Origin: Escherichia phage pO91
Direction: 5' to 3' (one strand)
Length of the DNA stretch: 39,650 nt
Sequence record: OR204650.1
In this document: piece by piece, positions 160-15,807 of the stretch
How the letters are laid out: the number at the start of each line of letters is the position of its first letter
Position numbering within the stretch: the stretch's first letter is position 1
Notes under the pieces: generated by a model
Seen by the model: the letters and a program-made list of their open reading frames with translations, nothing else
Databases searched by the model: none
What the model was told of the DNA's origin: nothing
Translations under genes and position numbers: made by a program

Positions 160-270
160 TCATAGACACAAAACTATAGACTTAAGGTCTAATACATGTT
201 AGTCAAAGACTATATCCTCTTACACCATGAGGCCGACGATAGCTCAATCAATATTATTTAAGATTACCTA

Positions 271-299
271 TTGACTATAGGTCTAGACTATGGCTTAAT
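271..299 (+). promoter_or_regulatory. Weak candidate sigma70 promoter (A1-like position)
   Basis: TTGACT at 271-276, 17-nt spacer, CTTAAT at 294-299; the -10 is a poor match to TATAAT. Confidence 0.25.
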
Positions 300-411
300 A
301 GCTTCCGTCAACACGACACGGCAACAACCGGATAGTGAAGACGCCGGGTCATCCCGGTTAAGTAGACAGCCTGATAAGTCATACGAACAACAGGCAGATG
401 ACAGAAAGTAG

Positions 412-5136: not shown

Positions 5137-5210
5137 CAGACCTACAGTTACTGGCCTTGTGGCTGGGAGCACTCGCAGTATTCACTTTAATACAACGCAG
5201 AAGAGGTTAA

Positions 5211-5233
5211 CCTAAACTATCACTATAGGATTA
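5211..5233 (+). promoter_or_regulatory. Phage RNAP promoter (phi1.1-like)
   Basis: CCTAAACTATCACTATAGGATTA; -16 to +2 match the window consensus. Confidence 0.75.
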
Positions 5234-7808: not shown

Positions 7809-8507
7809 ATGGCTAAAGAGCAACTGAAGACCTTCACCACTCCGGTAGCTGGTATCGTTGAGCCTTACGCATGGCTGAACAAAGCAGACACCAAGTTTAA
7901 CGAGCGTGGTGAACACAAAGTCAACCTGACATTCGACCTGAGCAACCCGAAGGTCCGTAAGATGATTGATGTCTTACAGAAGATTCACGACGATGCGTAT
8001 GCGAAAGCGCTCGCAGACCACGAGAAGAACCCTCCTCAGGTTCAGCGTGGCAAGAAGCCTATTGAACCACGAGAAGGCGACATGCCGTGGATTGAGAATG
8101 GTGACGGTACTGTTACCCTGAAGTTTAAATGCTTCGCGTCTTACCTGAAGGATGGTAAGTCCGAGCCTATCGTATTACGGTTCTACGACACCGATGCTAA
8201 GTTAATCCGTGACGTCCCGAATATTGGTGCTGGCTCAAAGCTGAAGGTCAAGTTTAAAGTCCTGCCGTTCAAGTGGAACGCTGCGACTGGTGCAAGCGTT
8301 AAGCTCCAGCTTGAGTCCTGCCTTCTGGTAGAACTGAAGGAGTGGAAAGGTGATGGTGCTGGTGGAGATGGTGGCTGGGGTGATGATGAAGACCTCGGTA
8401 CTGGCTACAAAGCGTCAACCGATGGTGACTTCGGGTCTGATGACTTCGGTGACGATGGTTCCGAAGGTGGTGATGACTCTAACTCTGGTGGCGATTACGA
8501 CTTCTAA
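7809..8507 (+). CDS. Single-stranded DNA-binding protein (T7 gene 2.5 homolog)
   Basis: Collinear with recalled T7 gp2.5 (EPYA, RGKKP, GDMPW, NGDGT, KFKC, GSKLKVK, KWNA, GASVKLQLES); acidic tail ending DF. Confidence 0.95.
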   Translation: MAKEQLKTFTTPVAGIVEPYAWLNKADTKFNERGEHKVNLTFDLSNPKVRKMIDVLQKIHDDAYAKALADHEKNPPQVQRGKKPIEPREGDMPWIENGDGTVTLKFKCFASYLKDGKSEPIVLRFYDTDAKLIRDVPNIGAGSKLKVKFKVLPFKWNAATGASVKLQLESCLLVELKEWKGDGAGGDGGWGDDEDLGTGYKASTDGDFGSDDFGDDGSEGGDDSNSGGDYDF

Positions 8508-8957
8508 ATGACGCTGAAAGAGAAACTGGAGGCTTACTCTAAGGTTTCTCCTTCGGGATGCTGGGAGTGGCAACGCTCCCGGACTAAAACTGGTTATGGT
8601 CAAATAGCTATAGGTCATCAGAAACAGGACTATTCTCACCGAGTTTCGTACAGGGAGTACAAAGGTCCTATACCTGATGGATTGGTTGTTAGACATAAAT
8701 GTGATAACCCTTGCTGCTGTAACCCTGAGCACCTTGAAGTTGGGACTCAGAAGGACAACATGCAGGACTGCGTGAAGCGGGGACGTCACTCGAAACCGCC
8801 AGTATTCAAAGGAGAAGCTAATCACAAGACTAAGCTGACCGAGGAAGACGTAGCGTTTATCCTGAAGTCCAAGCTGAGGCCTATAGAACTTGCTAAGATG
8901 TTTGGTGTTACTCCGCAAGCTATTAATTGGAGACGCAAGAATGGCAAGAACGATTAG
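8508..8957 (+). CDS. HNH homing-endonuclease-like protein (paralog A1)
   Basis: GPIPDGLVVRHKCDNPCCCNPEHLEVGTQKDN, a Cys/His-rich HNH core; free-standing between the SSB and endonuclease I genes. Confidence 0.85.
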   Translation: MTLKEKLEAYSKVSPSGCWEWQRSRTKTGYGQIAIGHQKQDYSHRVSYREYKGPIPDGLVVRHKCDNPCCCNPEHLEVGTQKDNMQDCVKRGRHSKPPVFKGEANHKTKLTEEDVAFILKSKLRPIELAKMFGVTPQAINWRRKNGKND

Positions 8958-9614: not shown

Positions 9615-10062
9615 GGTTCAGTTCAACCCACGGTCCCGTACTGACGCTATCTTCGTTCACTGTTCGGCTACCAAGCCAGATATGGACATCGGGGTAGAGA
9701 CCATCCGTATGTGGCATAAGCAGCAAGGCTGGCTGGACGTAGGCTACCACTTTATCATCAAGCGTGATGGCACTGTGGAAGAGGGTCGCCAGGTCAATGT
9801 AGTAGGGTCACACGTTAAGGACTGGAACTCACGGTCTGTAGGCGTCTGCCTTGTAGGTGGAATTGACGCTAAGGGCAAGTTTGAAGCTAACTTCACTCCG
9901 GCCCAGATGAACTCCCTGCGCAACAAGCTGGCTGACCTGAAGGCACTGTATCCTCAGGCAGAAATCAAAGCACACCATGACGTAGCACCTAAGGCGTGTC
10001 CAAGTTTCGACCTGCAACGCTGGCTGTCTACCAATGAACTGATCACTTCCGACCACGGTTAA
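9604..10062 (+). CDS. N-acetylmuramoyl-L-alanine amidase / T7 lysozyme homolog (gene 3.5)
   Basis: TDAIFVHCSATKP, WLDVGYHFIIKRDGTVEEGR, GVCLVGG, FTPAQM, HHDVAPKACPSFDL collinear with recalled T7 gp3.5. Confidence 0.95.
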   Translation: MVSKVQFNPRSRTDAIFVHCSATKPDMDIGVETIRMWHKQQGWLDVGYHFIIKRDGTVEEGRQVNVVGSHVKDWNSRSVGVCLVGGIDAKGKFEANFTPAQMNSLRNKLADLKALYPQAEIKAHHDVAPKACPSFDLQRWLSTNELITSDHG

Positions 10063-10086: not shown

Positions 10087-10302
10087 ATGATTAAACTTAT
10101 CGAATTTCTCGGTCGTCTGGTGGTGCGTGGCTATCGTCATGCTGCGGTTCTGGAACGAAAAGTAGAAAAGAAGACTGCTGATGGTGCGGCCGAGGCTGCT
10201 GCTATGGCTGACAAGCTGACCATAGCGTCACTGGAAGCTGGCATGAAGGCACGTCAAGCTGATACCAAAGCTGACCAGTTGGCTCAGTTCTTCAAAGACT
10301 AA
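10087..10302 (+). CDS. Hypothetical protein (71 aa)
   Basis: ORF track; GGAGAA RBS; Ala/Lys-rich; sits where T7 carries gene 3.8, but has no HNH motif. Confidence 0.55.
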   Translation: MIKLIEFLGRLVVRGYRHAAVLERKVEKKTADGAAEAAAMADKLTIASLEAGMKARQADTKADQLAQFFKD

Positions 10303-10320
10303 ACTATCACCTTAGGGATT
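10298..10320 (+). promoter_or_regulatory. Degenerate phage promoter-like site
   Basis: ACTAAACTATCACCTTAGGGATT; upstream half matches the consensus, -4 and -3 are substituted (CT for TA). Confidence 0.35.
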
Positions 10321-10366
10321 GGACCATGAGTCCTGTCCCTTTGTTCGCATTTGTGATTATTAAATA

Positions 10367-10445
10367 GCCTCCATAGCTCAAGAGGTAGAGCGGCGGGTCT
10401 TTATGGCCTATTGCGATTAGGGTTCGAATCCCCGTGGAGGCGCCA
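10367..10445 (+). tRNA. tRNA-like element (possible tRNA gene or pseudogene; anticodon arm not resolved)
   Basis: 7-bp acceptor stem GCCTCCA/TGGAGGC plus G-CCA tail; D-arm TAGCTCAAGAGGTAGAGC; T-arm TAGGG-TTCGAAT-CCCCG; the 25-nt middle section does not give a canonical anticodon stem. Confidence 0.45.
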
Positions 10446-10456
10446 CTAAGGAGTGA

Positions 10457-12160
<1,704 letters not shown>

Positions 12161-14620: not shown

Positions 14621-14947
14621 ATGGGAGGTGTAGCAACCTTACGCTTCCATAAGATGCCTACTGGATGTATCGTCTGTGTATCTCACAAGAGGAACCAAGA
14701 TGGATACTTTCGGTACACGGTAGGCTCTGCCCGTAAGCCGGGACGCAAGGCGTTTATGTTCCACCGATGGGTGTGGGAACAGAAGCGCGGACCTATACCA
14801 GATGGCTACGAGATAGACCATTTGTGCTTGAACCGTGGGTGCTGCAACATAGAGCACCTACAGTGTATTCCAAAGCGCGAACACGTCATTAAGACGAACC
14901 GTGAGCGCAAACTTATTAAGAAGGAGAAGACTAATGGCTATTACTAA
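14621..14947 (+). CDS. HNH homing-endonuclease-like protein (gene 5.3 position)
   Basis: RGPIPDGYEIDHLCLNRGCCNIEHLQ HNH core; immediately after the DNA polymerase gene. Confidence 0.8.
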   Translation: MGGVATLRFHKMPTGCIVCVSHKRNQDGYFRYTVGSARKPGRKAFMFHRWVWEQKRGPIPDGYEIDHLCLNRGCCNIEHLQCIPKREHVIKTNRERKLIKKEKTNGYY

Positions 14948-15424: not shown

Positions 15425-15807
15425 TGACCGAGTGTACCCGTTGGACTGGCTACTTCCTATCTAATGGGTATGGTCAGATAAAGAAAGCTGGAGTAAAGTG
15501 GCTGGCACATCGTCTGGTTTATACCGAGAACTTCGGTCCAATACCTGATGGTCTGGTGGTCAGGCATAAATGTGACAACCGCTGGTGCGTTAACCCTGAG
15601 CACTTAGAGCTTGGGACTCAGCGTGATAATATAAACGACTGCGTTGCCCGTGGTCGCCATAACAATGCAAAGCTGTCAGACCAGCAGGTTCGTGAAATCC
15701 GCAAGGATAAGCGCAGCTCTCGTGCTGTAGCGGCTGACTATGGGATTGACCATAAAGGCGTACTGGCGGTGCGGAACCGTAAATCTTATCAACATGTGGA
15801 GGACTGA
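15424..15807 (+). CDS. HNH homing-endonuclease-like protein (paralog A2)
   Basis: GPIPDGLVVRHKCDNRWCVNPEHLELGTQRDN; shares an identical 15-aa block with the 8508 protein; ATG overlaps the 5.7 stop. Confidence 0.85.
   Translation: MTECTRWTGYFLSNGYGQIKKAGVKWLAHRLVYTENFGPIPDGLVVRHKCDNRWCVNPEHLELGTQRDNINDCVARGRHNNAKLSDQQVREIRKDKRSSRAVAADYGIDHKGVLAVRNRKSYQHVED

Follow-up and report, generated by a model that had tools for sequence, protein, structure and literature searches.

A tRNA-like element with a conserved core and a variable anticodon arm upstream of gene 4 in Escherichia phage pO91

What kind of RNA is specified by a stretch of phage DNA that looks like a transfer RNA (tRNA) gene in all but its anticodon arm? 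The question arises in the complete genome of Escherichia phage pO91 (OR204650.1), a Kayfunavirus (K1F-like, T7 family) of 39,650 base pairs (bp) that is about 92% identical to phage TM1 and others and is referred to below, at its full length, as the window. A tRNA-like gene of 79 nucleotides (nt) at 10367-10445 lies in front of gene 4, which encodes the primase-helicase, and a preliminary description of the sequence had left it between a functional but unusual tRNA, a decayed tRNA and a captured fragment of a host tRNA gene. With slightly better than even confidence, we read the element as a selectively maintained, non-decoding tRNA-like RNA, a copy of the "pseudo-tRNA" cassette of Kayfunavirus. 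It is probably not an ordinary decoding tRNA.

Composition of the element and location of its variation

Using ARAGORN on the whole window, we obtained a single call, which ended exactly at 10367 and 10445 and was labelled tRNA-Stop with the anticodon tta at position 35. The Rfam tRNA model RF00005 scored 35.9 bits where its gathering threshold is 29 (E = 4.8e-4 over the whole window), a match that exceeds chance expectation, and no other family passed its own threshold. The element reads GCCTCCA-TA-GCTC-AAGAGGTA-GAGC-G-[GCGGGTCTTTATGGCCTAT]-TGCGAT-TAGGG-TTCGAAT-CCCCG-TGGAGGC-G-CCA; the 7-bp acceptor stem, the discriminator G followed by CCA, the D arm and the TTCGAAT T loop named in the preliminary description are all in place, and so are the nucleotides of the tertiary contacts (U8, A14, G18, G19, A21, G53, U54, U55, C56, A58 and C61). 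Folding predicted a cloverleaf for the element alone and, inside the leader of gene 4, as a domain of its own. The preliminary description was also right in finding no standard anticodon arm in the middle: Infernal aligned the acceptor, D and T arms with high posterior probability and derived the score wholly from them, skipping 17 anticodon-arm positions of the model and leaving 21 bases unaligned instead. Judged as a tRNA, the element thus exceeds the RF00005 threshold and possesses the acceptor stem with discriminator and CCA as well as the D and T arms; what we did not find in it is a canonical anticodon arm, in which a stem of 5 bp carries a loop of 7 nt that has U33 and, as base 37, a purine. 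Because of this failure, it should be annotated as tRNA-like or pseudo-tRNA, without an amino-acid or "Stop" identity.

The argument for selection is carried by where the variation lies. We compared 17 close copies, i.e. the window and 16 others, and found 6 of 19 positions variable in the anticodon arm (nucleotide diversity pi 0.059), 5 of 60 in the rest of the element, the acceptor/D/T core (pi 0.008), and 17 of 63 among third codon positions of gene 4 (pi 0.075). Of the five variable core sites, four are altered in the window alone, and the remaining one reflects the loss of 1 nt in a single metagenome contig (CYGL01000127.1, L022, copy at 5152-5229), which has CCC for CCCC in the 3' strand of the T stem, either a real change or a homopolymer assembly error; the 16 other close copies show no core substitution at all. 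In Fisher tests the core differed from the third positions (p = 0.009) and the arm from the core (p = 0.02), and the arm was indistinguishable from the third positions (p = 0.77), all p-values being rough because the baseline is short and the sequences are related. These counts indicate that the core is under purifying selection and that the arm appears close to neutral, with some hairpin retained. Since both parts lie within the same 79 nt, the contrast between them does not stem from recent spread or hitch-hiking. With the core kept and the arm changing at the synonymous rate, the element thus seems to be under selection, though not for decoding.

The structure of the arm was followed through its relatives by comparing five candidate pairing registers for the middle region across nine distinct sequences. 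A helix of positions 29-32 with 40-43 is kept in all nine; it can be extended by 33:39 and, across a 3-nt bulge, by 27:48 and 28:47, and the resulting stem is irregular, with either a C.A mismatch or the 3-nt bulge. This GGGU/GCCU register alone survives the substitutions in SH5, a second metagenome contig (L023), Seyj3-1, PM129 and the divergent copy (about 78% identity) of Kosakonia phage Kc166A: pair 32:40 occurs as U.G, U-A or C-G, 29:43 changes from G.U to A-U in Kc166A, and C28U gains or keeps a pair. Two arms had been put forward in the preliminary description, of which the stem with UUA is the one backed by the relatives; in Kc166A the CCTA/TAGG stem (anticodon GCG) keeps no more than 2 of its 4 pairs. 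It was rejected together with the "Thr cgt" register of ARAGORN, which loses pairs in SH5, L023 and Kc166A, and the "pseudo GTG" register, which reaches at most 2 of 5 pairs in any sequence, because the substitutions in SH5, L023 and Kc166A break all three.

Outside the arm, no close copy lacks any of the 7 pairs of the acceptor stem, and pair 2:74 shows a compensatory double change, with C-G in the window and U-A in all others. The D stem is invariant in all copies and D-loop positions 16-17 differ solely in the window. The T arm is invariant in the close copies except for the deletion in L022; in Kc166A one G-C pair of the T stem is replaced by A-U, and A-U also stands in place of the A.C mismatch. 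Apart from the 2:74 change of the window, the acceptor 3' strand, the discriminator G and CCA are conserved in all copies but that of Kc166A.

A probable maintained, non-decoding RNA and its alternatives

In the reading that we favour, the phage RNA polymerase would transcribe the element within the leader of gene 4, where it would fold as an independent cloverleaf. Host tRNA-maturation enzymes would then probably excise it, with RNase P cutting at G10367 and 3' trimming halting at the encoded CCA. The excision would yield a stable 79-nt RNA (76 nt plus CCA) and leave gene 4 with a leader of a few bases in front of the Shine-Dalgarno sequence, so taking off the gene 4 mRNA a hairpin that lies at its 5' end. 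The selective benefit would rest on the acceptor and elbow part of the tRNA shape and not on codon reading; it could consist in punctuation of the class II transcript, in the engagement of a tRNA-binding host factor or in something else.

Several points weigh against this reading. What suggests RNase P cleavage and 3' maturation is the shape of the element and its G73-CCA end alone, and release of the tRNA-like part would deprive the gene 4 mRNA of its 5' hairpin. The Kc166A copy (positions 402-479 of locus L005) scores 27.2 bits, under the Rfam threshold of 29, has lost both members of acceptor pair 7:69, which leaves a 6-bp stem, and ends in A-ACC instead of G-CCA; the element may be decaying in that lineage. 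Since the element is missing from K1F and from the greater part of the genus, any benefit would have to be conditional. The neutral baseline consists of 63 codons, and the copies compared with it are related. Finally, a formal covariation shuffle test on 8 distinct close sequences was not significant, 51-69 of 500 shuffles reaching the observed values, because there is too little variation; we regard the covariation as supportive, not decisive.

The alternative that survives best, although we consider it unlikely, is a functionless relic: a tRNA gene that arrived at a recombination hotspot, perhaps together with a homing endonuclease, and is now decaying as it hitch-hikes between a conserved promoter and an essential gene. 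Such an origin would be consistent with the non-canonical arm and its neutral-rate variation, the further degradation in Kc166A, the absence of the element from most of the genus, the HNH_3 endonuclease gene right after it in SH5 and the unrelated small open reading frames (ORFs) found at the same site in other phages. The decayed tRNA of the preliminary description is therefore right for the anticodon arm, which varies at the synonymous rate, and wrong for the acceptor/D/T core, which is near invariant in the 16 other close copies. It is this difference that disfavours a relic, because recent spread or hitch-hiking would have frozen the 60-nt core and the 19-nt arm with its 6 variable sites alike. 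Moreover, the core is less variable than the third codon positions of gene 4, the core substitutions that fall in a stem amount to one compensatory pair, and the element is found beside very different upstream genes in phages of at least five host genera.

We give slightly less credit still to a mimic of the tRNA core that engages a host factor, either a tRNA-targeting defence toxin or a tRNA-processing or tRNA-modifying enzyme. As a decoy or sponge for such a factor, for example a defence toxin that attacks the acceptor end or the elbow, it would protect the host tRNAs during infection, and an equally small chance is assigned to this version. Since a mimic need not decode, its anticodon arm would be free to drift, and a conserved core with a free arm is the pattern expected of a decoy recognised by acceptor and elbow; the accessory hotspot right behind a phage promoter and the occurrence in a minority of the genus would suit it as well. 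The diversity of the loop does not exceed the neutral rate, which gives no sign of an arms race at the anticodon, and a partner defence system was not identified. Phage tRNAs are known to counter tRNA-targeting defences (PMC10264068, PMC11464382, PMC11555353), although the cases in print concern functional tRNAs that replace cleaved host tRNAs and not decoys.

A working decoding tRNA, which would act as an ochre (UAA/UAG) suppressor in the window and as a UCA reader (anticodon UGA) in the relatives, is very unlikely. ARAGORN does call tRNA-Stop (tta) in the window and, for Kc166A and L023, tRNA-Ser (tga); these calls use one register, which is also the one backed by the relatives, and the body of the element has all features for processing and a CCA end. 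As expected of an ochre suppressor, UUA lies in a 7-nt loop directly after U33 in this register, and the window is the sole copy with U33 and the only one to combine it with UUA. Position 33 of tRNAs is almost always U, and position 37 is a purine in nearly all of them. In the loop, which is CGUGAUG in most copies, CAUGAUG in TM1, CGUUAUG in PDP21P1, CGUGAAG in Kc166A and L023 and CUUUAUG in the window, position 33 is mostly G, with A in TM1, and all copies except those of Kc166A and L023 have the pyrimidine U at position 37. Between near-identical phages the nominal anticodon changes, most copies having UGA but the window and PDP21P1 UUA; conservation of the anticodon among close relatives was not seen, and the arm, with an irregular stem that Infernal was unable to align, varies at a neutral rate. 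In IME278 the copy is marked as a pseudogene by tRNAscan-SE-style annotation. Charging by seryl-tRNA synthetase requires a long variable arm, which is absent from the element.

The genome itself also argues against suppression. TAA ends 33 of the 45 window genes, slightly more than in TM1, and in genes shared with TM1 no in-frame stop was found, bar a doubtful ORF of 71 amino acids (aa) in the early non-coding region. This ORF, annotated as "alpha trehalase" in TM1, has its homologue at window 196-411, with an in-frame TAA; it lies in the early promoter region and is probably a gene in neither phage. The UUA "ochre suppressor" anticodon that ARAGORN reads in this copy most likely represents one of the states taken by a loop that drifts freely, and ochre suppression by the window element is unlikely. 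The functional tRNA considered in the preliminary description is thus unlikely on account of positions 33 and 37, the shifting anticodon and a genome in which neither the use nor the avoidance of UAA suppression is visible.

Recent capture of a piece of a host tRNA gene, or an attachment-site remnant as in integrating T7-like phages, can practically be dismissed. In its favour are the tRNA-like appearance of the element and the tRNA-derived attachment sites of some marine T7-like phages. Against it, the element is a full-length cloverleaf and not a fragment, the annotation of the close relative TM1 contains no integrase, a BLAST search with the 79-mer in 5,426 complete E. coli genomes (28 Gb), able to detect only fairly high identity, gave no match, and the family-specific pattern GGTAGAGCGGNNGGNCNTNANGNCCTA met no tRNA gene in 185,579 species genomes or in a metagenome collection, both searches being confined to similarity above about 80%. 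The acceptor and T arm presumably resemble tRNA-Glu, and the loop GUGAU tRNA-His, of E. coli; this likeness was not used for the verdict.

Genomic setting and occurrence among phages

The features of the locus are collected in Table 1. The element is set 52 nt downstream of the promoter start, with the Shine-Dalgarno sequence of gene 4 beginning 2 nt beyond it.

Table 1. Features of the gene 4 leader and of the tRNA-like element, in window coordinates.
Feature	Position	Strand	Details
Phage RNA polymerase promoter	10303..10318	+	Variant of the genome consensus; present in all relatives
10-bp hairpin at the 5' end of the promoter transcript	10315..10339	+	GGGATTGGAC / CATGA / GTCCTGTCCC
89-bp cassette	10358..10446	+	9-nt AT-rich leader, 79-nt tRNA-like gene and 1 nt; absent from K1F
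tRNA-like gene, 79 nt, CCA encoded	10367..10445	+	ARAGORN; Rfam RF00005; predicted cloverleaf
Acceptor stem, 5' strand GCCTCCA	10367..10373	+	Pairs with TGGAGGC 10435-10441, 7 bp
D arm GCTC / AAGAGGTA / GAGC	10376..10391	+	4-bp stem, 8-nt loop; A14, G18, G19, A21
Anticodon-arm equivalent, irregular (tRNA positions 27-45)	10393..10411	+	Core helix GGGU/GCCU, 10395-10398 with 10406-10409
7-nt loop CUUUAUG	10399..10405	+	Nominal anticodon UUA 10401-10403; U33 = 10400, U37 = 10404
T arm TAGGG / TTCGAAT / CCCCG	10418..10434	+	T loop 10423-10429; A.C mismatch 10419:10433
Acceptor 3' strand, discriminator G, CCA	10435..10441, 10442, 10443-10445	+	Sequence
Gene 4 Shine-Dalgarno TAAGGAG	10447..10453	+	Starts 2 nt past CCA; identical in every aligned Kayfunavirus, cassette or not
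Gene 4 (primase-helicase), 566 aa	10460..12160	+	ORF list

What had been described as a degenerate promoter proved to be real: ACTATCACCTTAGGGA has 2 mismatches to the phage consensus ACTATCACTATAGGGA and is one of 11 sites in the window, where about 0.35 would be expected by chance. The analogy with T7-type promoters would put the start of its transcript at G10315 and thus at the hairpin. The latter is conserved, forms a separate domain in the predicted fold of the leader, shows a compensatory change in relatives (GGGAC/GTCCT to GAGAC/GTCTT) and is also present in K1F, which has no tRNA-like element. One of its pairs is a U.U mismatch in the window and in ECO104, and a U-rich stretch, TTTGTT, comes after it; the hairpin may serve to stabilise the 5' end or as a terminator-like element.

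The bounds of the cassette were obtained by aligning the window with ST31, K1F, EFA-1 and SR04. At the junction without cassette, in K1F, CATTTGTGAT is joined straight to TAAGGAGTGACCAATG, the ribosome-binding site of gene 4. Depending on the phage, the gap between gene 3.7 and gene 4 (window 10340-10459) is empty (K1F) or holds the tRNA-like element, an ORF of either 31 or 59 aa, or a gene for an HNH endonuclease. The small ORFs at this site in EFA-1 and SR04 are unrelated to the element, in SH5 the HNH endonuclease gene (HNH_3) stands immediately 3' of it, and each insert is followed by the same TAAGGAGTGACCAATG. The gap is a hotspot for accessory cassettes just behind a phage promoter. Gene 4 follows the element after 14 nt, not after 15 as had been described, and its protein is 98.4% identical to the TM1 primase/helicase over the full length, free of in-frame stops.

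Some further observations concern the surroundings of the element. The acceptor pairing CUCCA/UGGAG (10369-10373 with 10436-10440) places a Shine-Dalgarno-like GGAGG in the acceptor 3' strand, about 20 nt upstream of the gene 4 ATG, and the acceptor 5' strand holds an anti-Shine-Dalgarno-like CCUCC (10368-10372); judging from the sequence, if the acceptor stem were disrupted, this strand could in principle pair with the Shine-Dalgarno sequence of gene 4. To the left of the cassette in relatives, TTAAGAAATG resembles a degraded ribosome-binding site with an ATG. Upstream of the promoter, a gene of 71 aa (10087-10302) matches Pfam DUF5471 weakly, with 18.8 bits where the cut-off is 25. The gene at this place is very different among the phages that carry the element, and LM33_P1 has a lysin gene there. 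The HNH homing-endonuclease proteins of TM1 matched the window (tblastn) at 8508-8957, 14621-14947 and about 15427-15762, and as these matches occur at several places, several HNH-type endonuclease genes are present in the window. The one at 8508-8957 follows the TAA stop of the gene for the single-stranded DNA-binding protein (7809-8507) without a gap and in the same frame.

The flanking sequence matches 222 phage records, 33 of which carry the element with 92.7-95.1% identity; with the Kc166A copy, about 34 Kayfunavirus carriers are present in GenBank altogether. Their hosts include Escherichia, Salmonella, Enterobacter, Klebsiella, Citrobacter and Kosakonia. The same genomic position was confirmed in 15 aligned close copies, and the relatives score 36.5-38.7 bits with RF00005. 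In Kc166A the copy precedes a gene of 179 aa and not gene 4; the available 123 aa of its product have no Pfam match, and BLAST with this copy found no members outside Kayfunavirus. GenBank labels the element tRNA-Thr (U8, VIPECLMC06), tRNA-Pseudo(GTG) (IME278) or tRNA-OTHER (HC12, CHRF phages), or gives it no label. A "pseudo-tRNA gene" in Kc166A, DY1, ST31 and LM33_P1 is mentioned in PMC8402661, and beyond this one passing mention we found no functional or transcript data on the Kayfunavirus pseudo-tRNA in the literature. The pseudo-tRNA had thus already been noticed in Kayfunavirus, and the window copy is a new allele.

The window allele departs from the consensus at six positions: pair 2:74 (C-G), D-loop 16-17 and loop positions 34 and 36. 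An identical copy was not found among GenBank phages, in IMG/VR or in the metagenome scan. Scans of IMG/VR for the element returned ST31 alone. The pattern GGTAGAGCGGNNGGNCNTNANGNCCTA yielded two true Kayfunavirus copies (L022, L023) and two chance coding matches in the metagenome collection; its four matches in the species genomes were rejected as chance, all lying inside one protein-coding gene. Likewise set aside were BLAST matches in Pseudomonas Pakpunavirus, which are weak (E 0.07-0.8) and within coding genes, hence chance. A looser pattern of D arm and T loop returned from IMG/VR ordinary phage tRNAs, mostly Lys (UUU) and Trp (CCA), the D arm being common to them by construction.

A second 79-nt tRNA-like gene was seen next to a tRNA-Met in three IMG/VR sequences (L035 at 9943-10021, L042 and L052) that share about 95% identity with Pasteurella phages Pm86 and Pmp13. 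Its D arm and layout are the same, its anticodon stem has 6 bp, G73 and CCA are present, and the loop is an 8-nt poly-U; ARAGORN calls the gene "tRNA-??? tttt", and GenBank annotates it as tRNA-Arg or "similar to tRNA-Arg". Its acceptor stem contains two mismatches, and its acceptor and T-stem sequences differ from those of the Kayfunavirus element. It belongs to a different phage lineage, and homology between the two is uncertain.

Meaning of the element and relation to known systems

The names given so far to this one element conflict (tRNA-Thr, tRNA-Ser, tRNA-Stop, pseudo-His, tRNA-OTHER), and a "suppressor tRNA" label would mislead on a candidate therapeutic coliphage. The near-invariant core with its neutral arm provides a testable lead: what does a T7-like phage gain from a tRNA shape that does not decode? 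If the element served as RNase P punctuation of an mRNA or as an anti-defence decoy, this would be a new use of the tRNA shape in virulent phages; a mimic in particular would represent a decoy strategy distinct from the published replacement of cleaved host tRNAs. If dispensable, it would be a slowly decaying passenger.

The nearest known counterparts are the pseudo-tRNAs of ST31, LM33_P1, DY1 and Kc166A, which have the same site, between the promoter after gene 3.7 and the ribosome-binding site of gene 4, and the same 79-nt architecture. The window differs from the consensus at six positions, and U33 with UUA is found in the window alone. With canonical phage tRNAs, such as those in the clusters of T4 and T5, the element shares the cloverleaf core, the nucleotides of the D and T loops and, presumably, maturation by host RNase P. 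Unlike them, it occurs as a single gene within the leader of an mRNA, in a T7-like phage of 40 kb; a canonical 5-bp stem with a 7-nt loop is missing, the anticodon is not conserved, and U33 is absent from most copies.

The likeness to the suppressor tRNAs of crAss-like and Lak phages is limited to the stop-reading label that ARAGORN gives to the window copy. To our knowledge, those phages reassign TAG or TGA and not TAA. Their genes contain many in-frame reassigned stops, whereas the window has none in the genes shared with TM1 and uses TAA as its main terminator.

A tRNA shape embedded in a longer transcript is also known from mascRNA, at the 3' end of MALAT1, and from the tRNA punctuation of mitochondrial transcripts, where excision by tRNA-processing enzymes sets the ends of the neighbouring RNAs, as it would do for the window element. 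With mascRNA the element has a defective anticodon arm in common; the logic would be alike and there is no homology, the Rfam mascRNA-menRNA model scoring 15.5 bits on the element against a threshold of 42.5 (E = 1). In contrast to mascRNA, the window element has a bacterial host and an encoded CCA, and its processing is presumed from its form. By this analogy, the element would behave most like the tRNA-like processing signals that are embedded in longer RNAs.

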